A DNA stretch of 54,565 nucleotides, counting the filler, from Jimgerdemannia flammicorona (taxonomy: Eukaryota): NCBI GenBank assembly GCA_003990765.1. It is 2 parts of 2 records of this genome, joined end to end, with 100 filler letters (N's around TTAATTAATTAA, not from the genome) between each part and the next. Parts side by side here need not be neighbours in the genome. Positions count along the whole stretch, not along the records: positions 27,334 to 54,565 come from RBNJ01000649.1; 1 more part is not named here. The stretch is one strand, 5' to 3'. A program made the translations under genes and the position numbers. The number at the start of each line of letters is the position of its first letter. Positions within the stretch are counted from its first letter, which is position 1. Shown one piece after another: positions 20,422 through 49,973 of the stretch. Below the pieces are notes generated by a model. It was given only the letters and a program-made list of their open reading frames with translations. It was not told where the DNA came from and searched no databases.

Positions 20422-20877
20422 TGTAATATAGCAGATGCTAAGATGGGCAAATACATCAGATTTCTTTATCTTGAATTCTTGTCTTCTTGACTCCCAGAGT
20501 CAGTAGTTCCTTGAGGCCAAATGTGTTTAAAGAGGTAATCCCGAAGGTCCTTTTATCAGTATACTTGTTCTTTTTCTAACACTTTCGATCTGAGGTTTAT
20601 TCACTCGAAGATACTGGGTTATTTATACAAGTTTGCTAGCTATGAGATGGCTACTGAGTTACACAGCTAAGTTATGAGTCATTTAGACAATGTCTAGAAA
20701 TTTAGACAATGTTGAAATACTATACTAAATCAGGGTGTTCAATTTGGACAATGTCTAGAAATTTAGACAATGTCGAAATCAATGACTGCTAACTATAAAA
20801 CTATACTATTTTGGAAATGGGTGCGATCAAGTGTCTACTCCCTATTTTCTTCTTCCTAATTCGGCTATACCATCACA
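20422..20877 (-). repeat. 3' LTR of A1 (456 bp, TG...CA), with PPT at 20878-20890
   Basis: tgtaatatagcagatgc...accatcaca, followed by acttcctcctgaa (minus strand TTCAGGAGGAAGT); nearly identical to 26616-26893. Confidence 0.9.
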
Positions 20878-20914
20878 ACTTCCTCCTGAATAGATGGTCT
20901 CATCTCTGAGGCAT

Positions 20915-21376
20915 CTATTCAAACTCTCATGCTTCGACTGTCTGTATGGTTTTGTACTGTTCAATTTGTTGCATGACTGTCTCCCAATGATGTCTCCTTA
21001 TTTTATCAAAGTCAGTAGGGGTTACTCCTCACAGGTGGACTAAGGCTGATTCATCTTCTTGAAATAGCTTGTGGATCCTTTTGGCAATAGTGATCTGTGA
21101 GTAGGAGAGTTGGCACTCTGCAATCCAGTCTTCTTTGGTCTTTGTTGGATCCTGGTTAAGCACCCATCCAAGCTTGAAGTACTCTTAGAACTCTGCCCAA
21201 TGTTGGTAGGTACTAAAATGTGAGATCTGAGAGAGATGAGTCTGCACAATACTCTGAATATCCTCATAGTATGCCTCTATGGTCAGAGGCTTGGTGGTGT
21301 GCCATTGGCTTTCAATAGCCCTTTGTGCAGTACTAGTGATCTTGAGTGCTGCTGCAGTACTCCAGTTATTGGCCAT
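20915..21376 (-). pseudogene. ORF3 accessory protein of A1 (~153 codons, in-frame stops, no frameshift)
   Basis: MANNWSTAAALKITSTAQRAIE...HWAEF*EYFKLGWVLNQDPTKTKEDWIAECQLSYSQITIAKRIHKLFQEDESALVHL*GVTPTDFDKI; homologous to 34018-34782 and 40399-40842. Confidence 0.75.
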
Positions 21377-21399
21377 GGTACTTCTTGAGTCAGTTTCGG

Positions 21400-24300
21400 T
21401 GAATGGTGGTGGGGATTATTATGCCTGAGGGCTTTCATAGTCGGAAAGTGGTCCCTTTTATATCTTGCACCAGGTAAGGTCCTTCTCATTTAGGCTCCAG
21501 TTTTCATGACCAAGAGGCTTCTACCATATTCTGATACACCAGGACTTCATCTCCTATATTGATAATCTCCAGGGGCTTGTGGGTTTTTTCTGCATTGCTC
21601 TGTTATCGTGTCTACGCCTTGATTATGTAATCTTCTGCCTTTTTCCTAATCTGATGAAATCTCCATATCTCTGTATCTATATGCTCCAGATTGCATCATT
21701 ACCTGCTGACAAACTTCACCAGAACCTTCTTCACTGAATAGCATTTCTTATGGTATAAAATGGGTACTTTGTGATCGTATATCCCGCAGAGTGGATAATG
21801 CTATTGGTAGATAGTGGTCCCAGTTTCCATATTCGTTACAGATCTTGGCAATGATATTCTTGAGGGTCTTGTTGGTTCTTTCTGCTTGTCTGTTTCCTTA
21901 TGGGTGATAGGCTGTGATTTTGATGTACTGGATCTTGTACTTCTTATAAAGAACCTCATGGAACTGGTTGACAAATTCTGTTCCTCTGTCTGTAGTAACT
22001 TGCTTTGGGGTCTTGAATCAGCAGATGATTTCTCTATGAAAGAAATCAGAAATTGACTGTGCATTGGCTTCCTTGAGGGGTCTGGCCTCTATCCATTTTG
22101 TATAAAGGTCTACTATCACAATGACATATCAGTTGCCAGTCAATGTCAGGGGTAGAGGGCCAATTACATCCATTGTGATGAGGGCAAATGGTATTGGTTC
22201 GATGTCTGCTGATCCAGGGGCTTGATCTCATTGGTCTTGTTTCTGTTTCTGGCATTTGTCACAGGATCTGACAAATTGTCTGATATCTTATTCCATTCTG
22301 GGCCACCACATGGTTCTACTCACATTGTCATATGTATTTGTTCCTCCTAAATGACCTTGTTCATGTATTTCTTTCATCACTTGATTCTTCTAGTGCTTGG
22401 GGATGACTAATTGTTGTCCTTTCTTGAGTTTTTCTCCATCAGTTTTGAATTGTTTCCATGTCCGATTAATAATTGTTTTGGTCCATTCTTCCAGATGTGG
22501 GGGCACCTTTCACTGCCCCAGGTAGCTGATGATTCCATAATACAGCTCTCTATTCATGGTGATTTTGTAGGGGTGGAGTCCTTCAGGGTATCCGTGAGGG
22601 GGCATCAGCATTGGCATTAGTTTTTCCAGGGCAGTGGGTGATCATAGTATTGTATGCTTGCAGCTTCATGATCCATCGGGCATATATTCCTTTGAACTCA
22701 CTGGTAGTGAGCAACCAGGTGAGTGCCGAATGATCTGTCTGGATGGTGAAGTGTCAGCCAGCCAGATAGTAGTGGAACTTCTCCACAGCCCAGATGACTG
22801 CAAGGCATTCCAACTTGTATGATTCATAGGACTGCTCGGCTACTTGGGTATCTTGGCTGAGATAAGCTACCACATATTCGGCACCATTCTTCTTTTGTGC
22901 AGGGACAGCTCCAAGTCCCATTACACTGGCATCCATCTGCAGAATAAACTCTTGAGTCCAGTCAGGTCTCCTCAGGATTGGGGCCTGGGTCAATCTGGTC
23001 TTGAGCTTGTCAAAAGCTAGTTGCTGCTGCTGAGTCCACTGGAACTTGACCTCTTTTCTGAACAGATCATAGATAGGACTGGTGATGTGGGAGAACCTTC
23101 TAATAAATCTTCTGTAGTAGGATACAAGTCCCATGAAGGCTTGGGCTTCAGTGATACTGATAGGTACTGGGTATGCTGCTACTGCTTTGATCTTTGTAGG
23201 GTCTGTATGTATTCCTTCATGGTTGATGATGTGTCCAAGGTATGTGATTTCTTCTTCTCCAAACTTGCATTTCTTGGGCTTGATGAAGAGGCCATGTTTG
23301 CGAAGTCTACTGAGGATTTCCTCAATATGGTCCAAGTGTTCTTTGGCTGTTCGGCTGAAGATGATCATGTCATCTATGTATACCATCATCCATTTCTCCA
23401 TAACATCTCTGAAGATACTGTTCATCATTCACTGGAAGCTTGCTGGTACATTGCACATTCCAAAGAGCATGCGGAGATAGACATAAGTCCCATCTGGGGT
23501 GATGAAGGCTGACTTTTTGCTGGCTTCAGGTGTAAGGCCAATTTGGTAGAATCCAGAGAACAGATCAAGAGTGGTGTAGAATCGTACTTCATTCCCCAGC
23601 ATGATAAGAATGTCACTGATGTTGGGCAATGGTTGTCTGTCCTTCTCTGTGACCTCGTTGAGTCTTCTATAATCTGTACAGAGTCTTGGTGCAAATTCTC
23701 CTGCTCGGCTTCCTTTCTTTGGTGCAAGAATGATGGGGGAGGACAAAGGGCTGCTGGCTTCTTCAATGATACTGGATTCCTCCATTTCCTTTATCTCTGT
23801 CTTGAGCCATTCTCTGTATGCTGGTGGAATGGGGCAGGCCTTCTGATAGATTGGCTTTGCATCTCCAGTATTGACATCATGATAATACAAGGGTTTCTTG
23901 GTCTTAATGTCCTTGAAATCTGTGGCCAGTACATCCTCGAATATATGCAAGAGGCTCTGCAATTCTTCCCTGAGGGGAAAGTTTCTTCCAATTGTATAGG
24001 CGTGTTTGTCTTGGCTTTCCTCCTTCTTGTGCTATCTTAGTTGCTGCAAGGACTCCTCTTCCTGTAGAGCCGAATCCAGCTCTTCCTCATTGAGTTTATC
24101 TGATGTTTGTGACCTCCTTGATTCTTGGATTAAGGACAGATAGGATGAGCATTTGTACCAGCCAATCCTTCTTCCTTACTTCAAATGGGATTGTTGGGTT
24201 GTGGTTCCTGGCAAGAAGAAGGATTTCTCCAGTATAATCTGAATCGATGACTCCTCCTTCTATAAATATTTCGCTCTTTGCTTAGCTGCTCCTTGTCTTG

Positions 24301-26615: not shown

Positions 26616-26893
26616 TGGTAATGTAGTGGATGCTAAGATGGGCAAGTACGTCAGATTTCTTTATCTTGAATTCTTGTCTTCTTGACTCCCAGAGTCAGTA
26701 GTTCCTTGAGGCCAAATGTGTTTAAAGAGGTAATCCCAAAGGTCCTTTTATCAGTATACTTGTTCTTTTTCTAACACTTTCGATCTGAGGTTTATTCACT
26801 CGAAGATACTGGGTTAATTATACAAGTTTGCTAGCTATGAGATGGCTACTGAGTTACGCGGCTAAGTTATGAGTCATTTAGACAATGTCTAGA
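26616..26893 (-). repeat. 5' LTR of A1 (truncated); PBS-like TGGTGTCCATTGGCTGG immediately internal
   Basis: Matches 20422-20700 with a few differences, mostly transitions at CpG; interrupted by LINE sequence at ~26894. Confidence 0.88.
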
Positions 26894-27059
26894 ATGGGCT
26901 TTGAGGAGGCGGGCCCACTGGAAGAGGCACTGAGGGCAGGTATGGCAGTTGGAGAGGTGGTGGTCCCCATGGTATGCTGTTTGAGGTAGGACCCCAGGGT
27001 GGTGCAGCTGCTGGTGAAGGGGGTGCCCACAGTGATGAAGGAGGAGATGAGGAGGAGGT
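26894..27059 (+). mobile_element. Short LINE ORF1 fragment
   Basis: Colinear with 48528-48692 (gggcccactgga...ggtggtgcagct...ggggtgccca). Confidence 0.8.
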
Positions 27060-27233: not shown

Positions 27234-27333
27234 NNNNNNNNNNNNNNNNNNNNNNNNNNNNNNNNNNNNNNNNNNNNTTAATTAATTAANNNNNNNNNNN
27301 NNNNNNNNNNNNNNNNNNNNNNNNNNNNNNNNN
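27234..27333. other. Artificial contig spacer N44-TTAATTAATTAA-N44
   Basis: Exactly 100 nt; the 12-mer at 27278-27289 places stops in all six frames. Confidence 0.95.
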
Positions 27334-30090: not shown

Positions 30091-31657
30091 TTAAAGACGA
30101 TCTTTTATCCGATACTTGGATTGAGTACACAAAGTCACGGCAGGGTACACTTTCTCCGGAAGGTCGGTCCATGCAATCCCTTGGTTAATGCCATTGATGG
30201 AAAGAGCGCAAGTATGGTTGGCTTTATCCAGTTGAAAAGTCACTACATCGCCACTCCGTAGAATGTTGCCATAGTCGCGAGCCTCTCTCGGCCCAATTAC
30301 CTTTCGATAACCGTTCTTCCAAGACTCGAACCTCCACGTCGATCCCGTGGTTCTCATGTTGGAATCGAAGGCAGTGAACTCCTCACTCACCAATCCAAAT
30401 TACACTGAAGGACTGAAACACGTTTCCCCTATACAATCAAACACATTCGACCACTACGTCCCATTCACATAGTCGGTCCACAGTCGTTGTCCCGGGGACG
30501 GACATCCGCGCCGTCTGCTCCATAAACACCGGTGTCCTAACAGAAAGCTCCACGACCTTACCGTCATCGGAAACAACAGCGCACGAACGGACCTTGGATC
30601 GATCCCACTGGAGATCCTGACTTCCTTGATCTTGACTTGAACGATACCCGGACGGGTATCCTGTTTTGCACACAGTGTTCTTGCATGCATGGTGACAAAA
30701 GGCCGTGTAGTGAGGAGACGAATCCGCAAACCCATCGACCGCCTCCATGAGGGTCTTAAGGCGATACGGGCACACAAGGGTGAGGTCCACATGCCTCATC
30801 ATGTTTAGCAACGAGTCATTTCCTAGAGAATCTTGCCCTCGCATCCCGGAACCATACTGGCAACATCACACAAGACATCATGACGCTCCGCAACATCGGG
30901 TCCCGGCTCTTCGGAATGCGCCCAGACCCAGTCAATAACACACAGAAGCAGGTCGTATTCGGGAGTGACAAAAGTAGTCACCAAAGGTGCAGTAAAGAAT
31001 AGCTCGATAGCTTCCTTGGAGAGGCCTGTCAACTCTCCTACGGCGAGTTTTCGAGTGTAGAAAGGCTTGAGTAGAGATCCTTGCTGGCCTCACTCCATGG
31101 GATGGAGGCGGCGGCTTCGTTGAGGAGAGACGAGGAGACGCCAAAGTCGGAAATATCCTGAGGGCGCTCCAGCGCCATTGCCATGAGCTTTGGGAGAAGG
31201 AAGCTCGCTGCGTGGTAGATGTCCACCGCGATGGTGATGGTGATGTTATCGATTGATTCGGTGTAGATGAAGCCGAGGACGATGGTGAACACAGCAGAGT
31301 TGATGTCGTGAAGGACGACTCGCTGGGAGACGCTCTCTTGCATGTTTCCGTAGAGCATTGCCTTAAATACGGCGCACCTTTTGGACCATATTATGCGAAT
31401 TAATATGATATAGATCTATAAACTCATGAACACACCTTGCAGCCAATACAGCACGGCAAGCGCCAAGCTCGACGCCATCAGCGCAGACGATGGTTACGTC
31501 GTGATAGGTTGTGTCTTTCCATATGGAGGCGATGTCGTCATTGAGGTTAAGACCACTGTTGGGGTTGGCGCAATGACTTGTGACCGTCCTTATGAAATCA
31601 GCAACATAATTACGCCAAAGAGATAAAGATTTACACACCGAAGAGAATTGAATACAT
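30091..31657 (-). pseudogene. BTB/POZ - BACK-like - SPRY/B30.2-like protein gene with frameshifts
   Basis: BTB: YHDVTIVCADGVELGACRAVLAAR|CAVFKAMLYGNMQES...LHDINSAVFTIVLGFIYT (a GT-AG intron at ~31378-31435 restores the motif). BACK-like: EYDLLLCVIDW...MRHVDLTLV. SPRY-like: CEWDVVV...YGNILRSGDVVTFQLD...LSINGINQGIAWTDLPEKVYPAVTL. Frame changes at ~31070, ~30830 and ~30400-30440. The start codon is tentative. Confidence 0.8.
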
Positions 31658-31833
31658 CTCCCACTGGGTCCCGCAGATTATCGTTATTCGTTCGGTATTC
31701 TTATAAAATTATTCTGCATTATGTTCATCGGTCTGCATGCTTATGGCAGTTATTTACCATTGATCTTCGAGCGCCGAAATGCTCCCACAAAATGTGGAAA
31801 AGACCTTAGAATGCATAATAAAGAGCGTACATG

Positions 31834-32265: not shown

Positions 32266-33540
32266 TGTAATATAGTGGATGCATAACTGTGTAAGTATGT
32301 CAGATTTGTATATCTTGAAAACTTGATTTTCTTTGACTCTGCAGAGTCCTCAAGATGCAGAAGTGGGTGAGTTTGAAGTGTATCTGCCTGCAGGCTTACT
32401 AGTTACTTTACTTTCTCTTTGCTTTGAACTATTTTGATCTGAGGTTTATTTACTCTAGATACTAGAGATATTTATACAAGTTTGCTAGCTATAAGGTGGC
32501 TAAGTTACATATGAGTCACTTTTTGCAAGTATCAAATCTTTCAACATCTGCTAAATATTTGATGATTGCCAAGATTTTAACATTTGCAAAGAGTTTAACA
32601 TTTGCTAAAACTTTAATATTTGCAAAATGACTGCTATTTGTAAGGCTATACTATATTTGGGAATTGGATTCAGATACTGTGATCAAAAGTCTATTCTCTT
32701 GGTTCATGTTCCTAATTTGAATCAACCATCACAACTTCCTTCTGAATAGGTAATTCATCTCTGAAACATTCTATTCACTTGAACTTCTAAGCTTCCATGA
32801 TTTGTATCTCCTTGTACTATATAATTTGTATTATTACATTATTTTAATAGTATTTCTTGATATATACAAATTTTCCTGGGGCAACTTTACAAAAATTGGC
32901 TAAAGCTGGCTCATCATTTTTAAACAGCTTGTTGACTCATTTAACAATTACAATCTGAGTATAAGAGAGCTAGTACTCTCTAATCTGGTCTTCTTTTCCC
33001 ATCTCTGGCCATGAGTTTAGTAGTTGTCTCAACTTAAAGTATTCTTGAAACTCAGTCCAGTTCTGATAGATCTTGAAGTGCAAAATTTATAATAAGTATA
33101 TCTGAACTATACTCTGGATACTGTCAAAGGATTCTTCTATAATTAGTAGCTTGATGGTATACTATTTTCTTTCTATAACTCATTGTATAGTCATGGTGAT
33201 CTTGAGGGCTATAGTAGTACTCTATTGATTAGCCATAGTACTTTTTAAGTTGATTTCAGTAAATGGTAGTAGGGTTGATTGTGCCTGTGAGTTTTTATAG
33301 CCAAAAGATGGTTTCTTTTATATCTTATACTAGATAAGGTCCTTTCTACTTAGGCTTTAGCTTTTATAACTATAAAGCTTCAACTATATTCTAATATTCT
33401 AGAACTTTGTCTCTTATCTTGATAATATCTAAGGGCTTATAAATCTTCTCTATATTATTTTATTATAGTACCTGCACCTTGGTTATATAATTCTCAGCCT
33501 TCTTTCTGATTTGGTATAGTTTCTGTATTTCTGTATCTAT
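32266..33540 (-). mobile_element. Older A1-family 3' fragment: LTR 32266-32733, PPT, ORF3 relic (~32800-33236), integrase tail
   Basis: Colinear with 20422-21680; the ORF3 relic reads MANQ*STT...EFQEYFKLRQLL...QIVIVK*VNKLFKNDEPALANF. Confidence 0.88.
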
Positions 33541-36500
33541 TGTCATGTAGTGGTCACTGAGTCCTTCAAATATGCCAGATTCTCTTCAAGGTATATCTCT
33601 TAGACTAACTTAAGTTATTATAAGCAAGTTCTTATTGGAGTGTCTTCCCAAGGTCTTATAGTCCTCAAACTTCTTATCTTTAACTGTCTTGTTATCTCTT
33701 AGATTGCTTGCAAGGAAGTGTGTATAAGTGAAACCGGAACTTGACTTTATTTCAGAGGAAATAAGAAGGGTATTTATACAAAATACAATTCAATGGTTGC
33801 TAAGATATAAAGCTAAATATAAATTCCAATAACTAAAACTACTAAGTTCCAGAGTCAGTACTGATGGTTGTACAGGTTCAGGATGCTGACATTACTTAGT
33901 GTCACATCAAAATGCCAGTGCTGAAACAATTTTGCATCACCTCAGAATACCAGTGCTGGCATTATCCAGTGTTACATGAGAATACTGGTGCTGGCATTAT
34001 CTAGTGTAACAAAGAACTTAGAGCAGAAAGTTCAGGATCATAGAGGCTTCATCATCATCATCACTGAAGGAGATGAGATCTACGAATTCGGCATATAGGT
34101 TGCACGTTTCACATACTTCGCGTGCTTCAGGTATATCATGCAAGATGACGTCATCAATGATGTCATCACATTCGGCTGTGGTAGGGAAATCAGGGACAAG
34201 GTCTGGAGCTCTCCAGTCTATGAGGTTCTCTTCCACAAAATAAGGAACAAATGTGGGGTCTTGGGGGGATCTAATCTGGATGCTTAGGCCTTGGAATACT
34301 GAGATCAATCCTTGCAGAAATTGGTCTGGGTTATCCTGAAGGATAGGGTGCCAGAAGTCTTCCACTTCTTCACTGTTGAGGGTGATAGTGGACTGGGCTT
34401 CTGTAGCCACCCTGGCTTCTAGTGCATTGATACAGTAGATTGATAGAACTCTGAAGTCTGAGACTCTAACATACTCCAAGTTGAGGATTGACCATGGTGC
34501 ATATCTGAAGATCTGATAGATCTTCTTAGCTATTCTTGTTTCATGTATATCCATGAGAGTGGCATCTTGTAGCTCTTGGGTGCTGGCTTGTGGGAACTCC
34601 TGGCAGAGGAGGTTTCCTATTTCATACTCCTGCCATATTTGGAGGCATTCGGTAGCAATAGTGATCCTTGTTTCCATTTCACAGTGGTAGAGAATGAAGT
34701 GATAAGGGTCTGCAGTATCCAGGTTGACACTAGGAGTCCTTCTTGAGCAGGTCCTTATGGCTCTTCTGATGTCTTGAAACATTCTTTCCTTGACTGAGAT
34801 ACCTTGGTGATTCCTTGACCTTGAGATTTGGTAGACAGCAGGTATTTCATTTATGGTAAGTCTTTGAGCTATTTTGGGATTGGTGGTTCTTATTGGTTGC
34901 TGCTACTGCAGTTCCTTGATCCTTCTTTTATATTCTTCAGGATGCTTGTGCTGTGGTCACAATGACTCACAATTGGTCATCATTGCTTATCTCATATGCC
35001 GTATGATCTTCTTGTGCTCTGATCTGGTGGCTTACAAGGAAAGGCTGTCTCCTGTGCTGATGTCATCATTCTGGGGTCACTGTTACATCTTCCTCCTGAA
35101 TAAGGATCTTCCTGAGCATCCTTATTCATTGGTCCAGTTCTGAAAAATTTGTTGATCCCATAACCTCTGGCAAGGGGTTGAAAACTGATGTTTATGGGCT
35201 GGTATCTTCTCTTTGTATTTTGGCATCATGGTGAAGGGTCACTCCCTTCATATAGAGCAAGGGCCTGATTCTGATCTTGACCAATTAGTTGACAGTTTGA
35301 ACTCTTCTGACTGTGAAAGTCTTATGGATAAGTAGTTGCCAGTGCCATATCCCTTAGAGAATGGTCCAGACAGATAGCCTGCTGGTCATGGGACATACTG
35401 TTATGATTCATGGACTAGAACCTCATGGGTGGTCATCATGTTTTGCTTCTCTTGTATAGGTTTGTGGTACTTCTTGAGTCTGTTCCTATGTACTGTGGTA
35501 GACAGTATGGTCCCTGAGATTTTTCTAAGCCAGAAGGTAGTTCCCTTGATATCTTGTATGTAGAAGGGTCCTTCCCATTTGAGCTCCAGTTTTCGTGACC
35601 ATGAGACTTCTACCATATTTCGATACAGTAGAACCTTTTCTCCAATTCGGATGGGTTCTAGGGCCTTGTGATTCTTTTCCGCATTCTTCCTTGTCAGCGC
35701 TTGTAACTTAGTGATGTAATCTTCAGCCTTCTTCCTGATTTGGTGTAGTCTCCGGATTTCTGCATCAACCCATCTCCAAGTTAGGTCTAGATTTGTGGCT
35801 GAGGTTCCATCAGAATCTTCTTCTCTGAAGAGCAGCTCTCTTGGGGTAAAATGTGTGCTCTGTGACCATATGTCTCTGAGATCTTCGCTAGGATGTTCTT
35901 GAGGGTCTTGTTGGTTCTCTCTGTCTGTCCATTTCCTTGAGGGTGGTATGCAGTGGTCTTGATGTGCTGGATCTTGTATTTCTGATATATTATCTCGTGG
36001 AATCCATTGACAAATTCTGTATCGCAGTCTGTTGTAATTTGCTTTGGTGTCTTATAGTGACAGATGATTTCTTGGTGTAGGAAGTTGGCTATAGAGAGGG
36101 AGGGCATTGGCTTCTTATAATACTCCTGCCTCTATCCATTTGGTGAAGAGGTCTACAATAACTATAATATAGTAGTTTCCTGATAGTGTTACTGGTAGTG
36201 GTCCAATGATATCCATTGCAATGTGGTGGAAGGAGATAGGCTCAATTCTTGATGATTCAGGTACCTGGTCTTGCTGATCTTATTTCTGTTTTTGGCACTT
36301 GTCACACCCTTTGACAAATGGGCACAGGTCTTCTTCCATCTTGGGCCACCACATGGTTCTTCTTGCCTTGTCATATGTGTTGGTTCCTCCTAAGTGTCTT
36401 TGCTTGTGTACTTCCTTCATTACTTGATACTTCTTGTGTTCAGGTATTACTAGCTTTCCTCCTTTTCTGAGTGTAGTGTTGTCTAATTCAAACTGTTTTC

Positions 36501-39500
36501 AAGTCCAGTTGATGATGGTGATTGTCCAGGGTTCAAGGTGGTTGGGTATCTTCCGCTGCCCAAGATAGCTGATTAATCCATAGTATAGCTCCTTATTCAT
36601 ATTGAGTAGTCTTGATGGGAGTGTTTCAGGGTATCCTTGAGAGTGCATCAGCATTGGTGTTGGTCTTTCCTGAGTGGTGCTTGACAGTACAGTCATACTC
36701 TTGTAGCCTGTAAATCTATCTGGTATATATTTCTTTGGGGTTAGAGTGTGGAATAGCCAGGTAAGAGCAGAATGGTCCGTTTGAATGGTGAAGTGTTTTC
36801 TGGCTAGGTAGTAGTGGAACTTGTCTACTGCCCAAACTACTGCTAAGCATTCAAGCTTGCATGACTCATAGTTCTGTTCCACTCTGTAGGTACCTCAGCT
36901 TGCATAGGAGATGACATATTCATATCCATCTTTCTTCTGAGCTAGGACTGCTCCAAGTCCTATAGCACTTGCGTCTGTCTGCAGAATGAATTCTAGGTTC
37001 CAGTCTGGTCTTCTGAGGATGAGTACTTGGGTCAACCTGGTCTTGAGTTCATTGAAGGTTTCTTAGCACTTCTTGGTCCATTTGAATTTGGTCTCCTTCT
37101 TCAGTAGCTTGTAGATAGGTACTGCAATGTTAGAGTATCCTTTGATGAATCTTCTGTAGTAGCTGGACAGTCCAAGGAAGTCATGGACTTCTATAGTTGT
37201 TCTGGGTCTTGGGTAGGCTGCAACAGCCTCGATCTTCATGGAGTCTGTGTGAATTCCAGTCTGGTTGATGAGGTGTCCTAGGTAGGTGATTTCTTGAGCT
37301 GCAAACTTACATTTCTTGGGCTTGATGTACAGGCCATGCTCTTTGAGCCTCTTGAGGGCTAGCTGTATGTGATTGATATATTCTCATATAGTATTGCTGA
37401 AGATGATCACATCATCAATATAGACAAAGAGCCATTTTCCAATCTCATTGCTGAAGACTCTGTTCATCATTTGCTGAAAACTTGCTGGGGCATTGCACAT
37501 TCCAAATGGCATTCACAGATAGATATAGGTGGCATCAGGTGTGATGAAGGCTGATTTCTCACTGGTATCTTGAGTGAGACCGATCTGATGGAAGCCTGAG
37601 AACAGATCCAAGGTGGTGTAGTATTTGGCTTCACTTCTAAGAGTGGTAAGGATTTTTTGAATATTTGGCAAGGGCTGCCTATCCTTCTTGGTGATGGCAT
37701 TGAGTTTCCTGTAGTCAATGCAGAGTCTTGGTGCAAACTCTCCAGGCTTGCTTCCTTTCTTTTGGGCAAGGACAATGGGTGAGGCCCAGGGGCTGATAGC
37801 TTGCTTGATGATTCCAGCTTCTTCCATTTCCTTGAGTTCAGCTTGCAGCCACTCTCTATAGGCAGGTGGTATGGGTCTGGCTTTCTGATAGATAGGCTTG
37901 GTATCACCAGTATCAACTTCATGGTAGTACTTGGGTTCTTGATTGTGGATATCCCTAAAGTCTGTAGCAAGTACTCCTTTGTTCTGGTACAGAATCTTGA
38001 GAAGTTGTTCCTCTAGGGGAAAGTTTTCTCCAATGGTATATGTGTGCTTGTTCTGGTCCTTATCTTTCTTGTGCTCAAGTTCAGTAATCTTAGTAGCAGC
38101 ATAGGCTCCTCTTTCAGTAGATCCAAAGCCTTGTTCTCCTCTCTTGGTCTTAATAAGTTCAGTGGCTTCTATGATCTTGGGCTTCTTGATTTCGTGGATC
38201 AGCATCTGGCCAATCCTGTCATACTTCTTGACTTCGAAGGGGGTGGTGTGGTTGTGATTTCTGACTATAAGAAAAATCTTGCCAGTATAATCAGAGTCAA
38301 TTACTCCTCCTTCAACTGAGATTTCGCTTTGGCCAGACTACTCCTGGTCTTGATAATTCCAGTATGGTTTTCTGGCAACTTGACTCTAATTCCAGTGCCA
38401 AGTAGGGTGGTGGTCTGTGGTTCGAGGGTAGCATCTTGGATACTGGCAAGGTCCATTCCTATGGCTCCTTTAGTCTTGTATTCTGGGATCTTGGCTTCAG
38501 GGTGAAACTTCTTGACCTTGAGAGTGATGTCTGATTCTTATTTCTCCTCATCATCACTGTCAGCTTGAAGCTCTGGGGGCTGGTCATCTTCTTCAGTTTT
38601 CCTTTTTGCTTCAGCAGCTTCTTGCTCATGTTTCTGTTGATGGATTTTCCTGACTTCACTGATACAGGACCAGCAGTCATTCAGGTGTTCGGAGCAGTAC
38701 ATTCTAGTACCATGGGGGCATCTTCCTTGAGGGACATACCCATTGATGATCTTGTTATACCACTGCTTATCTGTGAGGGTATCTTGTTCTTGTTCTTGTT
38801 CATCAAGTGCATGAAGACCTCTGTGTCTTCTTTATCTCCTTCCTCCATATCTAGCAGGACTCCTTTGTGGACATTGATAGAAACTCATACCTTTCTTTCT
38901 CTGTAGTTGATCTGCATCTTCTGGGCATTGAGGTCAATGATGGCCTTGGCCTTGTGAAGCCATTGGTTGCCAATGAGGATGTCATAGTTGGTGGCACTTA
39001 TAACAATCATGTCTACTGGGATGGTAGCTCCTCCTATCTTGATGGGGACTTCTCGGATTTTGCCAAGGGGGGTAGCTCATATACCATCTGCTGTGATATA
39101 GACCATCTTGGTGGACTCTTCAATGTCCCAACCTAGGCGGTCAATTGCCTTCTTGCTCATGAGGCATCCTCCAGCACCAGTATCAATGATGGCATCAAAG
39201 ATACAGTCTTCAATCTGGCAGGGAGTATAGGCTGATGTCTTGCACTGGTCTTCAGATTCTTCACCTGAGTTCTCAGATTCTTCTTGTGTATTGTGAGCTT
39301 CTATGATCTTGTACTCTTGATTCTTGGCAGTAGTTGTAAGTCCTACTCTTAACTGCTGTCTGAAGGCAGGGACTTCAGCTAGCTGCTCAAAAGTGGCATT
39401 GACCTTCTGTTCCTTGAGGTCCTTGTAGATGTCATACTGGTGGATCTTGGTCTTGTGCAGCTTCTGTTCCTTCTTGCTCTCACTTTCTCCTAAGACTGGA

Positions 39501-40110
39501 GTAGTGCCTTCGATAATTTGGTGGGCAGCTTCATCTAACTCCATGTCTTGATCAATCTCCTCAGGTTGGGTCTTGCTTTGAATAGTGACAGCTGGAGTCT
39601 TCTTTGGTCTTCCAACTGGCTTGCTGTTGCTCCTCTTGTCATAGGGCTTGGACTGGGTTCTGGTATCTTCAGTAGCAGGGTAGAATTCGAGCTTCTTGTA
39701 GTATTCTTCATCATCAGTGTCACCGATCTCCTCAATGACTACTGCATTAGTTTGTTCTCTGGTTCTACTAGCATTGCTTGGTTGGGCTTTGCATCTCATT
39801 TTGGTCATGCAACTCTTTGCATAGTGGCCTTCTTCTCCACATCTGAAGCATATAATATTTCATTCTTCTGTAGCAGCTGCAAATCTCTGCACTGGTCTCC
39901 TGTTAGTGCTTTAGACTTCTCTAACAACATCACTGAGGTGTGCAGTCATCTCGGCGAACTGCTTGGCAAGTTCTTCCACTGGGTCAGCTTTGGCTGTCTT
40001 GGGGGTAGGTGGGGTTGGTTGTCTGTTTACGACTGTGGCAGGTAAGATACTAGTTAGCTTTGATGGCTCCATCTTGATGCCAGTTATTTTCTCCATTGAG
40101 TGTTTGGCAG
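33541..40110 (-). mobile_element. Ty3/Gypsy element 'A2' (sister family of A1): partial gag-PR-dUTPase-RT-RH-INT, ORF3, 3' LTR (~33541-34113); 5' end cut off at 40110
   Basis: Knuckle CFRCGEEGHYAKSC (~39805-39850); AIIDTGAGG; dUTPase GGVIDSDYTG...RGEQGFGST (~38110-38470); RT PRLCIDYRKLN, YIDD; integrase HIKTTAYHPQGNGQTERTN, KWEGPF. Confidence 0.93.
34018..34782 (-). CDS. ORF3 accessory protein of A2 (254 aa, intact, unknown function, acidic C-terminus)
   Basis: Uninterrupted ORF downstream of integrase on the element's sense strand; core WQEYEIGNLL...ETRIAKKIYQIFRYAPWSILNL is shared with the other copies. Confidence 0.75.
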   Translation of the reverse strand: MFQDIRRAIRTCSRRTPSVNLDTADPYHFILYHCEMETRITIATECLQIWQEYEIGNLLCQEFPQASTQELQDATLMDIHETRIAKKIYQIFRYAPWSILNLEYVRVSDFRVLSIYCINALEARVATEAQSTITLNSEEVEDFWHPILQDNPDQFLQGLISVFQGLSIQIRSPQDPTFVPYFVEENLIDWRAPDLVPDFPTTAECDDIIDDVILHDIPEAREVCETCNLYAEFVDLISFSDDDDEASMILNFLL

Positions 40111-42135
40111 TGTAAGTGCACAACCTCCAAGCCACTGAAATTACACATCACCCTCTGAACAAGCTACCGAAATTACACGCGACCTCTGAACAAATCTGGA
40201 AATCACCTGCTTGATCATAAAGCTGAGTCAAACCGAAGTCATAGTACACAAAGCTGAGTCAATACGAAGTTATGGAACACAAGATTTATACAAACAGAAT
40301 CTTACCAATCAGGACTAAATACATATATACTGAGCACCAAGACACGTCGAATCAGAGAACCAAAACAAACAACAACTACAACTCCCAAACACACAAACAT
40401 GACCACTGAGATCTACAACTGTATCCACGCTAACATTTGGAATGCCATTGTCAACTGAGCCACACCCCCTCTGCCCCTCATGAATATCCATAGCCTGGCA
40501 CCCCTCTACTTCATGGAAGCCCGATGGAATGCCCTGAACATACTTAGTGAGACCCACCGAATCGGACAAATCTCAAGCTACTATCAGATTGGCTGCCTCC
40601 TGAAAGACATGATCAAACACCACCATGATACAGATATTACCCAAATGTCTCAACACTAGAAGCTCATCGCCCGCAAACATCGAGAACTCTTCTATGAGTA
40701 CAACACCTTTATTCTCCACCTCCAAGTCACTACCAGTGAAATGGTTGCTACCCTGTCCTATGGCCAAATCGATGACATGATACAAGAACTCAACCACAAG
40801 TACCTTGAATACATGCAGAATAGACAGAACCTTCCCGCACCCTGATGACCATATCCTGCAAATGCCTCAAGTCGGATACGCCATGAAGGATGTCTATGAT
40901 ATAATCCACTTCGATGAAGATGAAGCAGAAGACAATGATCCCTCTGATGCCGACATGACCTCTAGCCAAGGATCTCTGCCAACCCTGATCACACCGCCAA
41001 ACTTGCCGATGAACTTGCAACAGTTCATAACTATATACGAGACTTATTGGGACAATGACCACTGGCATGAATACCAACCTATGTTCACTCCCAACTACTT
41101 CAACTATAATGAAGAGACCAGAGAACACAACCTGTACCTCCAGACAACCCTCGAGATTGAACCAACCACTCCACCACCTGAGTACGAGCGACATGAACCA
41201 CAGCCGCCAGCTTACTACAATCCTGCAACCCATAGTGCTGTAACCTATAGAAGGTATGCAGACAGTGAATCTGACGAAAGCGAAGACAATACACCCATCC
41301 TTCACCCACCAACACCCTATCCAGCCTATGAGACAGACGATGCTATCCTGTGGGATAGAGACGAAGTCCCAATGTATTACTACCTCAGCAAACAAGGAGA
41401 AGTAATCCGCGAACCATTATTCCTAGACAACTACTTCATCAGAGATAATGCAATTGATGGTGATGTCATCGAAGACTACCCAGATAGTGTCTAAACCATA
41501 AATAGCCTAGCAGTCATAGTATAGTTAGATTAGCTTTGTATGACATGACTGTGAACTGACTCAGCAGTCAGATGATCTCTTGACATGTCAGATCACACTT
41601 GTACTACATGACTGCATTCCGACTCAGCAAGGCACTTAGTGCTACATCCATATTCAGCATAGTCCAGATAGCCCCTCACTAGTATAAATACCCCCTCCCC
41701 CAGACCTCAGAATCTCAGACTTGAACAATCCGAACACAACTCCTGAGCACTTCCCCACAATACCCCTTCACACAAATACTCCTAGTATAGCAATATAATG
41801 AATAGCAAATAAACCTATTCCATAACCCATAAACCACTCTTAAGTAAATCCGCTCTCTGTTAGGTCCCACTCCTAACCCTGTCACGAAATTTCCTAATTG
41901 GGTATTGTCTGCAGCGATACACCAATTCAACTAAGCTGGTCTTAGTTTCTTGAACTTCCTGAAATATGGAAAATCCTGGACATCCCGAACTAGTCCAAAA
42001 AGGACTTTGGTTGAGACGTCAACCCGATCTCGAAATCAATAAGCATAGAGGACGTACTCCATATGAAATTGATCTTGACCATAAAGAAAATGGTCTTTCA
42101 GAACATCCAGAATATCCAGAAAATCTTTCCAGAAC
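40111..42135 (+). mobile_element. Third LTR-element fragment 'C': TG start, short tandem duplications, ORF3 homolog, TATA and polyA signals
   Basis: Begins TGTAAG where A2 gag stops; duplicated ~30-bp motifs at 40135-40285; AGTATAAATACCCC (~41681); AATAAA (~41808); possible LTR end at ~41886. Unrelated to the 46437-46900 LTR. Confidence 0.6.
40399..41494 (+). pseudogene. ORF3 homolog of element C (stops at 40456 and 40657; probable frameshift near 40840 into the acidic, Pro-rich 40805-41494 ORF)
   Basis: MTTEIYNCIHANIWNAIVN*...GQISSYYQIGCLLKDMIK...QMSQH*KLIARKHRELFYEYNTFILHLQVTTSEMVATLS. Confidence 0.7.
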
Positions 42136-42139
42136 TACA

Positions 42140-45100
42140 TAATGGTCACCCTAAAAAGTAACCCTCTTACACTGAAGAAATCTGGAGCCTATTTCTTCTG
42201 TTACCAAACAGGACACATTGCAACCAAATGTCCTAGGAAGACTAGCAAACCCTCAAGACCAGTCACTGTATTGTCCAAGAATATACCTGTCAATCCCACT
42301 ATCAGTCAACTTGAGCTCAAGGTCAAGAAGCTTCATCTGAAGGCCTAGGTACCTCAATATTAAACAGAAGAAGCCATTGGTCTTGATCTACACTCAGTCA
42401 AACAAGTCACTATTCTAGCTAAGGGCTGTACTCTAGTGCCTACTGAAATTGCAGTTCAATGCCCTGAAGGATATTATGCTAGAATTGCATCACAATCAGG
42501 ACTCAGTGTCAAATATCATTTGGATATAAGTGCTAGTATCATTGACCTAGACTTTTGAGGACAAGTTCAAGTCTTACTTGTTAACCAGAAGGTTCAAGGC
42601 TATACAGTTAAAGAAGGAGACCAGGTCACACAAATGATCCTGGAAAAAGCCAGTCAACTCAAGATTACAGATATCCAAGAACTCTCTGAAACCAAATGAG
42701 ATCAAAAGGGTTTTGGCAGCACTGATCAAGCAGCAAGTCTTAGTGAAAATCAAGCTCAAGCTGTGCTCATTTTCAAAGACCAAGTCAAAGAAAGAGAAGT
42801 TCAAGTACTCATAGACAGCAGAGCTGTAGGGAACTTCATCAATCAGAATCTCATCAAAAGCCTCAAGATCCTCACCAGGCCTACCTCCAAGAACAATAGT
42901 ATAGTCACTGCAGATGGTACTCTGCACCCCATCAAGTTAATTGCCACCAAACTATCCATCAAGATCCAGAAATATTGGAAACAAGTAGACTTCAAGGTTG
43001 CACTACTAGGAGATCATAACCTAATCTTAGGAAAACTCTGACTTATGAAACACAACTCAGACATTGATTGGTATAAGAATAAAGTCACTCTACTTCAAGA
43101 TGGAGTCAATATTATAATCAAGACAGATAAGACCATAAGCAAGACCCAGATTGCAACACTGTCAGCTATATAGTATAAGAAAGTACTCAAGAAGACAATG
43201 CATATCTTTGTTGTAATGATCTGCCTCAAGAAATAAGACAAGAGACTACCAGTCAATGAAAGCATCAAGCTACTGCTAGAAGAGTTCAAGGATATCTTTC
43301 CAGACAAGCTACCTGATCTACCACTTGTATGAGAAGTTGATCATAAAATCGAACTGACCCCAGAAGCTGTACTACCTAAGAAATACATATACCACATGTC
43401 ACCACTCAAAATTGAAGCAGTCAAGAAGGAACTAGAAGAACTACTTGCATGAAGAGCCATCTAGCCAAGCAAATCTCCTTATGGCTCACTAGTCTTATTC
43501 ATCAAAAAGAAGGATGATACTCTGCGAATATGCATAGACTATTGTGCACTCAACAAACTCACTGTTAAGAACCACTATTCGCTATCCTTGATTGATCAAA
43601 TCTTTGATACTCTTAAGAATACTAAGTACTTCACCAAGTTAGACCTCATGTCAGGATACCACCAGATCTGAATCAAGCCAGAAGACATTCTTAAGACTGC
43701 AATTCATGACTCTCTTTGGACTCTACAAATTCCTGATCTTAGCATTTGGTCTCACCAATATACCTACCATATTCCAGACCCTGATGAACAAGATATTCAA
43801 GGACCAACTATTTATTTTCCTATTGGTATATCTTAATGACATCCTGATCTTTAGTGCAACTAAAGAAGAATATCTCAAATACATTCAAATAGTTCTGGAG
43901 ATTCTGCAAAAACACAAGTTTTACACTAAGCTCAAGAAGTGTAAATTCTTCAAGGAACAAGTTGAATACCTTGGTCACATTGTCTCTGCACAAGGAATTC
44001 AAGTAGACCTACACAAGATAGAAGTAATAGAAGAATGGTTCATTCTGTCAAACCTTATAGAACTCTGATCCTTCCTTGGTCTAGCTAGCTATTACTGCCA
44101 CTTTGTCAGAAACTTCTCTAGCATTACTGAGCTACTGACTAACCTCATAAGAAAGGCCCTGCACTCAGACCACTATGTACCCTATACCTGAGACCTCTTC
44201 TGTTAACAAGCCTTTCAAGAACTCAAGAACTACCTGACCTATACTCCAGTCCTGCATAATACAAATCAAGGCCTAAAATTCATGATCACCACTAATACAT
44301 CAAATTTTGCCATTGGAGCAGTCCTATTACAAGATGATGGCAAAGGACATTGCTCTATTGCTTTTGAGTCCCACAAGCTGGCCCCAGCTGAACAAAAGCT
44401 AGCTACTTACAAGAAGGAACTATTAGTAATAATACATATACTAGACCACTGGTGATACTATCTAGAAGGTATTGAGTTTGATGTTATTACTGATTATCAA
44501 TCCCTCAAGTACATCAACACCCAACCTACTCTGTTATGTCTATAAGCTAAGTGGAGCCTCAAGCTTCAAACCTTCAATCTGACAATCATCTATAAGCCTG
44601 GCAAGACACTTGTAGTATCAGATGCCTTATCAAGATATCCAGACCTTGTTACAATTATGCAAGTTATCTTAGCATCAGAATTCCTAGACCAAATCAGGCA
44701 AGCTTACAAAGAATATATAGTTGCCACTAGAGTTTTCTCAAATGAACTCAAGGATACATATACTGTCAAGAATAACCTGATCTATCATCAAGACCAAGTC
44801 TACCTATCTGAAAACATGAATCTATGCTACAAGGTTTTGCAAGAACATCATGACTCCCCTTACCAGTTACCTGGGAATTGAGAAGACTGTCAAGAACATC
44901 CAATGCCACTACTATTGGTCAAGCATGGTCAAGGAAATCAAGAACTACATTACCAGCTGTGATCTATGTTAGTGCAACAAGTCTATCAATCAAGCACCTA
45001 CCAGTTTGCTATAACCACTGCTAATTTCTATCAAGAAGTTCAAACAAGTCACCATGGACTTTGTAACTCAACTATCATAAACTCAATCTGGTGCTAATGC

Positions 45101-46900
45101 TATCATTGTATTCATTGACTACCTGATCAAGACTATAGTTACTAAACCAACTACTACCAATGCTATTGCACCCAAGATTGCAAGAATCTTCTTCAAGTCC
45201 ATTTTTTGTCACTATGGTCTACTATGAGTAATTGTCAGTGATTGTGACCCTAAGTTTATCAGTCACTTCTGGCAAACCCTCTTCAAGACTCTGGAAACCC
45301 AATTGGCTATGTTTACTATCTTTTACCCACAAACTGATGGACAAACCAAGCACATGAACAGAACTCTAGAACAAATGCTTAGAAACTATATTTCTTATAA
45401 GTATGATAATTGGGACATCTACCTGACTTATGTAGAGTTTGTATACAATAACATCATCCAATCATCTACTGGTCTTTCCCCTTTCTGGTTACTTCATAGT
45501 TAAGATCTCAAGACCCCTACAAGTCTATTCTCTTTTAAGAAAACCAGTCAAATATAAGTCCCAACTGCTAAGAACCTTATAGATAAAATGGACAAACTAC
45601 TCAAGATTGCTACTATGAATCTTCAGAAGGCTCAACAGCATCAAGCCAAGTATACTGATAAGAAACACTGTGATGTCACTTACACTGTTAAAGATCAAGT
45701 CCTACTGTCTACTAAGAACCTCAAGATATAATCTCAAGTCAACTGCCCTTTAAACAAGTTCCAACCTAAGTATATTGGACCTTTTGAGATCACTGAACAA
45801 GTCTCTACATCCTCCTACCATCTCAAGCTACCTGAAACCATAAGAGTACACCCAGTCTTTCATATGTCATATCTCAAGATCTGGAACCAGTCACTACCCT
45901 ACTCTGGTCGAATTTCTAAGCTTTCTATCCCTGTGATCATCAAAGACTATATTAAGTATAAAGCAAAGCTAAGAAAATTCTTGATAAACGAATCTGCTAC
46001 TGCCATCCTGAATACCTAGTTAAGTAGATAGATTATCCTGAATATAATGCTACCTGGGAACTACTGATCAACCTCAAGAACTCTCAAGATCTAGTTTAAG
46101 ACTTCGAGGCAAAATACATTGCTCAATCTCTGTAGTGACTTCCTTAGATTGTCAATGACCTATGGCAATGACCAGTGCCTTATATATCAGAAGTTTACTT
46201 TGGGACCCCAGAACCAGCAGAACATTTAATGAACAGGAAGTCCACCAAAATGAAGCTACTAGCTGGGTTTGAAACCCTCCCAGTTAGTTAGTCTGATAAT
46301 AGGCCCTCTGCTCTATATAAGGATGGCCAATCTCTGCCAATGCACTAATTCAAGTTTGAGAAATTTTGGTTAAGTATATCTAGTCTTGTGTTACCTAAGA
46401 ACTCAATGAGCATGTTGGTTCTTAAGAAGGGAGAGATGTAACAATTTCACAGTCATATTTAGTCTTAGTATATTTTCACATCTTTTAGTTAGTCTTTTCT
46501 CATCATTTCTTGAACATTCTACTATGTTCCATCACCTTTTACTTGCTTAGAAACCTTCTCTTGGCACTCAGACACTACTAAAACATTCTTGTCTTTCCTT
46601 GATACCAAGCATCTTGTCTTAGCTAGTTATAGAATCTTTTGGAATATTGTAGAATAGTATTAGTCAGCTTTGCTGAGAATCTATTTCTTGGCATTTCTCT
46701 TTCTTTCTAAGATTCTTCTGAATCTTTCTTTCAGATTATATATAAATATCCTTATTCTCTGCCTGAATAAAGCTCAGAATATTTTCTCCCAGAATTTCTT
46801 TGAGAACACTTGAACCTTTAAGTATCTCTTCAAGCTACTTTAGGCCAACCAGAACTTCTAGATTTAGCTGCTTTCTCTTAAAGAAACTAGAACTGTTATA
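42140..46900 (+). mobile_element. Ty3/Gypsy chromovirus relic: gag knuckle-dUTPase-PR-RT-RH-INT-chromodomain, PPT, 3' LTR
   Basis: YFFCYQTGHIATKCP; dUTPase ~42320-42725 (AIGLDL, SQSGL, IIDLDF*G, KGFGST); protease VLIDSRA; RT CIDYCALN, LDLMSGYHQI, VYLNDILIF; integrase YPQTDGQT; chromodomain-like EYLVK*IDYPEYNATWE (~46010-46060). Confidence 0.9.
46437..46900 (+). repeat. 3' LTR of the chromovirus (464 bp); PPT AAGAAGGGAGAGA at 46424-46436
   Basis: TGTAACA...TGTTATA termini directly after the PPT; TATA-like tatataaata and AATAAA inside. Confidence 0.85.
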
Positions 46901-47840
46901 GCCAGAGAGACTACCACTGGAGAAGCTAGATCAAAGGTGAGTGTCTGAGCAGGGGAGAAGAAAGTAATATCAAAGGGGACTCTAGGAGGGGGGGAAGGTG
47001 TAGGGCTGAGTATTATTGTGGAGGATGCTAAGATGGCAGAGAGGGAGTGCCTTCAGGATGAAGTGCCAGATAAGGCTAGAGATGGTGATGAATGGTCATA
47101 CCCCTTTCTCCACTATCTTACCAGTTATATTGATTTAGTAGGTGACCTTCTGAGTTCTCTTTCCACAACTATTACTCTCTCTACCTCAGGTTGGTTTGCT
47201 GTACCTATTACAGGATAGTGGGGGGGAAGGTAATGGTGATGAGTTGCCCTTTTATTGGTATCTGATTAGTGTTTTCTCCACTTTTTCATAGATTCTGGTA
47301 CCTTTGGCTGTATCTGGAGTACATCTGTTTTGGTGCAGCATCTTCTTTCTTTTGCTATCACCAACAAGATATTGTCTCAGTATATTACAAGTTATATAGG
47401 AAGTTGGCTGACCTTGGGCATCAAGTGCCCAGTATAGGTTACCTGCAGGTTCTTGGTGTCTATAGTGGAGCCCTCTGGCTTTGGTAAGCTTCTTAGTGAG
47501 CATAGTTCTGGTATAGGTGACTGTTTTTTGGGTGTTGTCAGGATGGAAGGGGAGATGGCCATCACAGATAAGAGGAAGAGTGATTATGGTAAACCAGTAG
47601 AGTGTCAGGCTGGGGGTAGTTATCAGGACTGAGGCAGGTACTGCTTCAGTGGGGCCTTTTGATTAATGCAGAGCAGTTAGGTGGTAGGTATTATTCTTAA
47701 CTTCTTTTGGCAATTTGGCAGGTTGGGTCCTAGTTATTAGAGGAGGTTGGGGGGCCTAAGGCTACCCATTTCAGACATCTTGGCTGTACTTAACTGGAAC
47801 TGAGAGCTGATACAGTAATATGATTGAGGCCTACAGGCTT
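46901..47840 (+). mobile_element. Older LINE 3' fragment (ORF2 end plus part of the 3' UTR)
   Basis: Colinear with ~53260-54192 but with many C>T/G>A changes; stops at ...acaggctt (47840). Confidence 0.85.
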
Positions 47841-47908
47841 CACAATTTATGTTATACACACTTTACAACACACTTTCGAGTCGTTTATTGGAGAAAGTTA
47901 TTAAGGAA

Positions 47909-49942: not shown

Positions 49943-49973
49943 AGGATGGGAATATATTATATCAGTATTCTTA

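Follow-up and report, generated by a model that had tools for sequence, protein, structure and literature searches.

The window analysed here is a stretch of 54,565 nucleotides (nt) from the genome of Jimgerdemannia flammicorona (GenBank assembly GCA_003990765.1), in which two parts are joined by 100 filler letters, the second part (positions 27,334 to 54,565) coming from record RBNJ01000649.1. It contains long terminal repeat (LTR) retrotransposons of the Ty3/Gypsy type, including two related elements, A1 and A2, in which an additional open reading frame (ORF), here termed ORF3, follows the integrase on the same strand as gag-pol. An older, decayed A1-type copy carries a further ORF3, and a fourth ORF lies in an element that was called C in an earlier reading made from the sequence alone (the sequence-only reading) and is called E here. 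We interpret ORF3 as a real, separately encoded accessory gene of one non-chromoviral, dUTPase-carrying Ty3/Gypsy clade, placed in sense between integrase and the 3′ LTR, and give this interpretation a probability of about 0.6. The features are listed in Table 1.

Table 1 Coordinates of the ORF3 copies, their host elements and the neighbouring chromovirus in the window.
Feature	Position	Strand	Description
A1 3′ LTR	20423..20699	(-)	97% identical to 26618-26894
A1 ORF3	20915..21376	(-)	153-codon family; 2 in-frame stops before the terminal stop
A1 5′ LTR	26618..26894	(-)	97% identical to 20423-20699
Older, decayed A1-type ORF3	32775..33236	(-)	10 stops in 172 codons read; layout as in A1
A2 LTR-like tail	33650..34017	(-)	Truncated; three 35-nt direct repeats (33884-33988)
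A2 ORF3	34018..34782	(-)	254 amino acids, intact; start of relatives 21 codons upstream (to 34845)
Spacer, A2 integrase stop to ORF3	34846..35403	(-)	9 stops in the ORF3 frame
A2 gag-pol	35404..40111	(-)	Zinc knuckle, protease, dUTPase, reverse transcriptase (RT), RNase H, integrase; 5′ end cut at ~40111
E ORF ('C')	40399..41494	(+)	~366 codons; stops at 40456-40458 and 40657-40659; 2 bases short near 40819
LTR-like tail behind the E ORF	41495..41950	(+)	43-nt direct repeats (41524-41629); right end approximate
Chromovirus	42190..46135	(+)	Zinc knuckle, dUTPase, protease, RT, RNase H, integrase, chromodomain; outside the ORF3 finding

A1 is a complete element. Its ORF3 lies inside the LTR pair, between the end of integrase and the 3′ LTR, and 38-nt direct repeats are found at 20681-20779. 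The ORF3 start codon stands in an ACCATGG context and overlaps the last pol codons by 11 nt in the +1 frame, an arrangement that suggests expression by re-initiation or from a subgenomic RNA. An intact relative of 153 amino acids, P0013, shares 77% identity with the interrupted window copy. At its outer end the A1 5′ LTR appears to be about 135 nt shorter than a 3′ LTR begun behind the polypurine tract (around 20836-20855), and two runs of 44 N each (27234-27277 and 27290-27333) lie just beyond it.

In A2, translation confirmed the intact frame of 254 amino acids that the sequence-only reading had reported. The A2 integrase consists of the zinc-binding domain and the core, and its frame ends at 35404, about 560 nt from ORF3. 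In the relatives P0002 and L001 the ORF begins with 'MPA...', 21 codons 5′ of the methionine used in the window, and the window copy has isoleucine at the codon where the start methionine of the relatives stands. A stop about 20 codons 5′ of this relatives-type start is common to the window copy and to L001, a locus recovered from metagenomes; ORF3 is therefore a cistron of its own, and for A2 its reading as a read-through extension of pol was rejected. The spacer of about 560 nt suggests that A2 ORF3 would be translated from a spliced or internally started RNA. Across the subfamilies, the encoded proteins measure 153 amino acids in A1, about 275 in A2 and about 366 in E. The position that generally defines an ORF3, in sense and flanked by integrase and the 3′ LTR, is occupied in A1 and, with a truncated LTR-like tail, in A2; in E the LTR-like tail alone is visible. 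A blastn comparison (word size 7) of the window revealed no LTR pair belonging to A2, E or the chromovirus.

Parts of the window occur in 17 of 19 sequencing runs, at shares of at most 0.28 and mostly in soil or rhizosphere metagenomes; three of the runs (X4, X7 and X19) belong to one coded organism, and no RNA run was among those listed. Within the A2 tail, which carries TATAAATA at 33771-33778 and AATAAA at 33746-33751, contigs of two runs skip 32, 77 or 101 nt inside the 35-nt repeats (33851-33953), so the number of repeats differs between copies of the tail. At the opposite end of A2, contigs of the soil-associated run X7 run on leftward from 40111 with different, mutually similar sequence (four contigs with loose ends at this position, 86% agreement), which suggests that other copies continue leftward of 40111 with different sequence.

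The older A1-type copy retains 64% identity with A1 in a comparison of 701 ungapped nt (32760-33460 against 20900-21600). Half of the 251 differences (126) are G>A (63) or C>T (63), compared with 26 A>G and 17 T>C; this one-way transition bias fits cytosine deamination or mutation of repeats resembling repeat-induced point mutation. Together with the chromovirus and the Gypsy elements that carry a dUTPase, such decay is in keeping with a fungal genome. A chromodomain is absent behind the integrase of the A lineage; the chromovirus next to it has one (Pfam Chromo, E=3.8e-6) and lacks ORF3. The two also differ in the order of their genes, with zinc knuckle, dUTPase and protease following one another in the chromovirus (42172-43038, plus strand) and protease, dUTPase and RT in the A lineage (38100-39223, minus strand); in their best segment the two dUTPases are 41% identical in amino acid sequence.

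Kinship of ORF3 in A1, A2 and E

The peptides on which the sequence-only reading had founded the kinship of the four ORFs were all recovered at the places given for them in A1, the older copy, A2 and E. Its alignment of sequence blocks stood in part. The EYFKLG/EYEIG/YYQIG block and the following 19-residue block are in the register chosen by alignment programs, whereas the pairing of AQRAI with IRRAI is not, as MAFFT and hhalign both pair 'FQDIRRAI' of A2 with 'YEDIQSIV' of A1. Counted on the translations, the distance from the glycine of the first block to the 19-mer is 26, 27 and 24 residues, where 25-28 had been given.

Statistical support for this kinship comes from a hidden Markov model (HMM) of the A2 family, composed of the window copy and ten database relatives (11 sequences) and scanned against 1086 overlapping 200-residue six-frame chunks of the window with stops read as X. 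Besides A2 itself, the sole significant matches were A1 ORF3 (E=8e-4) and the E ORF (E=8.2e-4), and the next unrelated chunk followed at E=1.7. Shuffled sequence did not reproduce either match: the score of A1 was 16.0 bits, whereas the best of 2000 shuffles had 10.0, and E scored 15.7 bits against maxima of 12.1 in one set of 2000 shuffles and 9.0 in another of 3000. Profile-to-profile comparison of the A1 and A2 families by hhalign gave P=7.3e-6 and a probability of 84% over 102 columns; a plain tblastn search of A2 against A1 ORF3 was not significant (E=5.8). On these sequence comparisons, the kinship of the A1 and A2 ORF3s is well supported.

The earlier proposal of three divergent LTR elements does not stand in that form: A1 and A2 are sisters at the subfamily level, and the window does not show the parent element to which the third ORF belongs. 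The gag-pol regions of A1 and A2 are 69% identical at the nucleotide level over about 4.1 kb, and the two are therefore placed in one clade and not in independent lineages. Identity between their proteins falls from 63% in RT-RNase H through 56% in integrase and 47% in the nucleocapsid region to about 25% in ORF3, which by this comparison of sequences is the fastest-changing part of the elements. The subfamilies share just a core of about 110 residues, predicted to be all-helical.

The E ORF does not follow an integrase in the window; the plus-strand element to its right, with zinc knuckle, dUTPase, protease and RT, begins only downstream of it. We read it as part of a separate 3′ fragment because it has its own LTR-like tail, because the adjacent chromovirus is truncated and because A2 is cut at about 40111; the stretch from 40111 to about 41950 would then probably represent ORF3 and LTR of a third element, E, with its pol outside the window. 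Truncation of the chromovirus at its 5′ end follows from the roughly 80 codons that separate the E tail from its zinc knuckle, compared with about 250 residues before the knuckle in A1 gag. The chromovirus also ends in a TATA and poly(A) tail of its own after integrase, with which the E tail (TATAAATA at 41683-41690, AATAAA at 41808-41813) had no sequence in common that we could find. In view of the short pre-knuckle region and the unrelated tails, the E ORF was rejected as the gag of the chromovirus. Contig depth summed over four runs is higher over ORF3 and its tail than over pol and drops about tenfold to the right of about 42380, a hint that 40111-42380 forms a unit separate from the chromovirus, although depth cannot rank the parts. 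The two-base shortfall near 40819 is relative to most contigs (66 of 82 depth units in run X1), and both halves of the E ORF are in one frame in the relative P0018 and in most soil contigs.

From the sequence comparisons it is likely that the E ORF shares its origin with the ORF3s of A1 and A2. An alternative that we consider improbable, if still worth weighing, is that it is unrelated and that the likeness stems from helical, similarly composed sequence. Such a chance likeness would agree with the hhalign results for E, with a probability of 8% against the A2 family (P=0.004) and 0.7% against the A1 family (P=0.087), with the score of the A1-family HMM (6.3 bits, equalled by 9 of 3000 shuffles) and with C-terminal halves in which no similarity was detected. 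It would leave unexplained, on the other hand, the 15.7 bits obtained with the A2-family HMM, for which 0 of 3000 shuffles scored at or above 9.1, the window-wide E value of 8e-4, the colinearity over about 105 residues in the register found for A1, and the same placement just 5′ of an LTR-like tail. A resemblance noted by eye between the C-terminal halves of E and A2 ('QQF...P.F.P.YF..EE') was examined separately and is unsupported (hhalign P=0.37).

Selection, relatives and protein features

The relatives of ORF3 are all metagenome-derived and annotated as 'hypothetical protein'. For the A2 family, a word-indexed search returned 6 of 357 candidates at E<=0.01, and among 1.84 billion representative proteins five reached E<=1e-3, all of the same family, with three more distant; the distant relatives are 36-42% and 28% identical and their frames are open. 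Five relatives were found for A1 ORF3, one of them intact at 153 amino acids, and one for the E ORF. Scanning of metagenomes with the A2 family yielded the single locus L001, of 1345 nt, and with the E ORF 58 pattern matches that included no relative, while scans of viral contigs with the A2 and A1 families gave 0 relatives each.

The A2 ORF3 and its counterpart in L001 are 52% identical in amino acids over 274 codons. By the NG86 method, the nonsynonymous (dN) and synonymous (dS) divergences are 0.38 and 1.77 over the full length and 0.26 and 1.97 over the 215 conserved codons, corresponding to a dN/dS ratio (omega) of about 0.13-0.21 in which dS is saturated. Identity at codon positions 1, 2 and 3 is 64, 74 and 50%. 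Conserved residues occur in patches that resemble motifs (W, P, DN, F.G, YF, I.W), a pattern retained down to 28% identity. In agreement with the earlier suggestion of a maintained gene, ORF3 is kept as coding sequence across copies, as seen in omega for one pair and in the open frames of the relatives. At the level of sequence, the core evolves much faster than pol and does so under purifying selection.

Searches of family libraries returned no described family. In Pfam, the window ORFs were without a match at E<=1, as were three relatives at E<=0.1. Among 16 members, NpmA matched one (E=0.026) and HTH_Tnp_Mu_2 two (E=0.031), both insignificantly, and none of the four Pfam families matched by any of these members at E<=1 is retroviral. 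Chromo had no match in the ORF3 proteins in the same search that detects it in the neighbouring chromovirus. A profile search of PDB sequences produced 0 matches at E<=10, and the ESM Atlas offered no usable match for A2, with scores of at most 0.88 for the relative P0011. The sequence-only reading, which could not name a family, is borne out in this respect, and the protein family appears to be undescribed.

Several properties of the protein are nevertheless apparent. It is not an env protein, as already suspected, and has no hydrophobic or transmembrane segment: the Kyte-Doolittle maximum over 19 residues is 0.19-0.97 in six proteins, and no Pfam env family was matched. The acidic tails noticed earlier in A2 and E are real, the C-terminal halves of both being strongly acidic, and intact A2-type proteins begin with a basic quarter (+7, +4). 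The N terminus and the C-terminal tail vary, with the tail absent from A1 and acidic in A2 and E.

The helical character proposed from the sequence is also predicted, with low confidence, by both AlphaFold models. AlphaFold2 gave a mean predicted local distance difference test score (pLDDT) of 46 for the A2 family (11 rows) and 53 for the A1 and A2 families together (16 rows), and the best-predicted stretch, residues 61-105 of P0013, forms three helices at pLDDT 62-74. Foldseek returned 0 matches in the PDB at E<=1e-3, its local matches having a probability of 0.35-0.54 at E>4. In a VIA search no chain exceeded Z 5.0, which is within noise by the calibration of the tool. With the core alone (about residues 58-115), 8 of the 12 rows obtained after trimming of low-confidence parts were titled transcription regulators or DNA-binding factors; residues 88-165 of Mu transposase reached Z 4.8, and TrpR and Lrp/AsnC were likewise at Z<=4.8 (model pLDDT 53). 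The predicted three-helix core at about 61-105 of P0013 gives weak structural matches (Z 4.3-4.8) to the helix-turn-helix (HTH) domains of TrpR, the Lrp/AsnC N-domain and Mu transposase I-beta/gamma, but all of these scores lie below significance and come from a low-confidence model. An HTH-like core is a lead and not a result.

Candidate roles of ORF3

A common layout follows all three ORFs. Two or three direct repeats, each 35-43 nt long, begin some 30-140 nt after the stop; next comes (G)TATAAATA(C/A)CC and, about 100 nt beyond it in the A1, A2 and E tails, AATAAA. Between subfamilies, neither ORF3 nor the unique 3′ (U3) region can any longer be aligned as DNA, although pol retains 69% identity. 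The most likely role of ORF3 would be that of a small regulator that binds nucleic acid, with an acidic tail and a core weakly reminiscent of an HTH. More specifically, and only tentatively, it may be a self-encoded transcription activator that acts on subfamily-specific repeats upstream of the LTR TATA box. The target of the HTH-like core would be the lineage-specific direct repeats that the element itself carries from the stop of ORF3 to the TATA box, and the acidic tail would activate transcription in the manner of the 3′-encoded transactivators of complex retroviruses. What favours this proposal is that ORF3 lies just 5′ of the LTR, that A2 and E have acidic tails, that there are weak leads to an HTH and that ORF3 and U3 have diverged in parallel.

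Carried further, the proposal becomes more doubtful: a sequence-specific transactivator might co-evolve with the U3 repeats, so that each subfamily drives its own promoter only, which would account for the joint divergence of ORF3 and U3 beside a conserved pol. If true, ORF3 would be a retrotransposon counterpart of Tas and Tax that arose outside retroviruses. Tas (Bel-1) of foamy viruses and Tax of human T-cell leukaemia virus are 3′-encoded transactivators of complex retroviruses. ORF3 resembles them as a small non-structural protein encoded just 5′ of the 3′ LTR, in the acidic C-terminal part found in A2 and E, and in its proposed targets, the U3 repeats; it differs in lacking similarity in sequence (no Pfam match at E<=1 for the window ORFs) and, in A1, an acidic tail.

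Several observations weigh against the interpretation of ORF3 as an accessory gene with this kind of role. The pol of E is not in the window, and the position after integrase is thus seen for A1 and A2 alone, of which A2 has no full LTR pair here; E is moreover the copy with the low hhalign probabilities given above. The relatives carry no genome context, L001 at 1345 nt being too short to provide it, and the number of intact relatives is biased upward, since gene callers report open frames only. The estimate of selection compares one sequence pair with saturated dS. With regard to function, the absence of an acidic tail from the A1 family means that an activation domain is not a shared feature, confidence in the two structure models is low (mean pLDDT 46 and 53), all fold matches fall below the noise bar (Z<=5.0) and the Pfam HTH match is not significant.

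Other roles were weighed against these data. It is rather unlikely that ORF3 acts after transcription or against silencing, as a helper of RNA export or packaging or as a suppressor of RNA interference or repeat silencing. Here the arginine-rich N terminus would bind RNA, the leucine-rich C-terminal end (LNFLL) would serve as an export or protein-contact motif, and an arms race between element and host would lie behind the rapid change. Consistent with such a role are the basic N-terminal quarter of intact A2-type proteins, the very rapid divergence relative to pol and the bias towards transitions in decayed repeats, G>A and C>T providing 126 of the 251 differences that separate the older copy from A1. 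A C-terminal hydrophobic motif also fits; of 9 A2-family rows that extend to the C terminus, 7 have conserved it. The A1 family, however, has neither the arginine-rich N terminus nor the C-terminal motif, and no known RNA-binding or suppressor family was matched in Pfam.

Less probable again is a helper in integration targeting or assembly, for example a tether that replaces the missing chromodomain, or a gag-like chaperone. The complementary distribution of chromodomain and ORF3 between the chromovirus and the A lineage would suit a tether, and the overlap of the A1 ORF3 start with the pol stop would couple its synthesis to that of pol. Against this, ORF3 resembles neither gag nor integrase nor a chromatin reader, as none of the gag and pol regions surpassed E=2.4 when the HMMs were run over all six frames and Pfam found nothing, and the A2 ORF3 lies about 560 nt from pol. 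Least probable by a wide distance is that ORF3 has no function and is open by accident within 3′ untranslated sequence of the element, since the in-frame stops of two of the four window copies and the stops and frameshift of a third are outweighed by an omega of about 0.13-0.21, by third codon positions that are the least conserved, by motif-like conservation down to 28% identity and by the occurrence of 0 stops in 254 codons against 9 in the adjacent 186-codon spacer in the same frame.

As an accessory gene, ORF3 can be compared with additional ORFs described elsewhere. Extra ORFs occur in plant Ty3/gypsy elements, and the extra genes of LTR retrotransposons are the raw material of retroviral accessory and envelope genes. 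To our knowledge, few of those that are not env have a known role. The ORF3s of the bdelloid rotifer elements Vesta and Juno are env-like, a GDSL esterase, a DEDDy exonuclease or small ORFs, and the elements carry dUTPase between protease and RT (PMC5408684). The A lineage shares with them a lineage-specific sense ORF between integrase and the 3′ LTR and the place of dUTPase between protease and RT; unlike the env-like, GDSL and DEDDy proteins, the ORF3 of the window matches none of these types and no Pfam family. Fungal elements with an 'add. ORF with unknown function' appear in a figure legend (PMC2864245, Fig. 3) and can be likened to ORF3 by description only. The same applies to brtn, an extra gene of Boty-like Gypsy elements of Botrytis cinerea as cited in PMC8365987: it too is carried by a fungal Gypsy element as an additional gene whose function is not known, but it is antisense to gag-pol, whereas ORF3 is in sense. 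In the survey 'LTR Retrotransposons in Fungi' (PMC3248453), the terms 'dUTPase', 'additional ORF' and 'third ORF' are absent. No description of the ORF3 protein family was found in the literature and family libraries searched, but supplements of papers could hold related sequences. While extra ORFs in LTR retrotransposons are already well documented, the ORF3 protein family itself therefore appears to be new.

ORF3 represents a compact orphan family under selection that can be tested through intact relatives in public data. Its three subfamilies combine a shared core with different tails, and there are matching promoter repeats specific to each subfamily. If ORF3 is a self-encoded regulator, it would show how related subfamilies keep separate control of expression in one genome; otherwise it would serve as a marker for annotating this clade in assemblies of soil eukaryotes, where its members are now listed as 'hypothetical protein'.

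Other features of the window

At 30094-31677 on the minus strand, between the retrotransposon copies, a host-like gene survives in pieces spread over several frames, in which BTB (E=1.8e-8) and SPRY (E=1.8e-6) domains are recognised. A G+C-rich (52-56%) LTR element occupies 47103-54000 on the plus strand, bounded by LTR-like repeats at about 47103-47650 and 53457-53995 that are 77-85% identical, and a further copy of its repeat is found at 9107-9977. This element contains a 504-codon open frame (48428-49939) with no Pfam match. A dUTPase-like segment at 11580-11942 on the minus strand, 32-37% identical by tblastx to the chromovirus dUTPase, points to a further degraded Gypsy element. At 1645-1922 there is a G/T-rich tandem array with a 14-nt period and about ten or more units.

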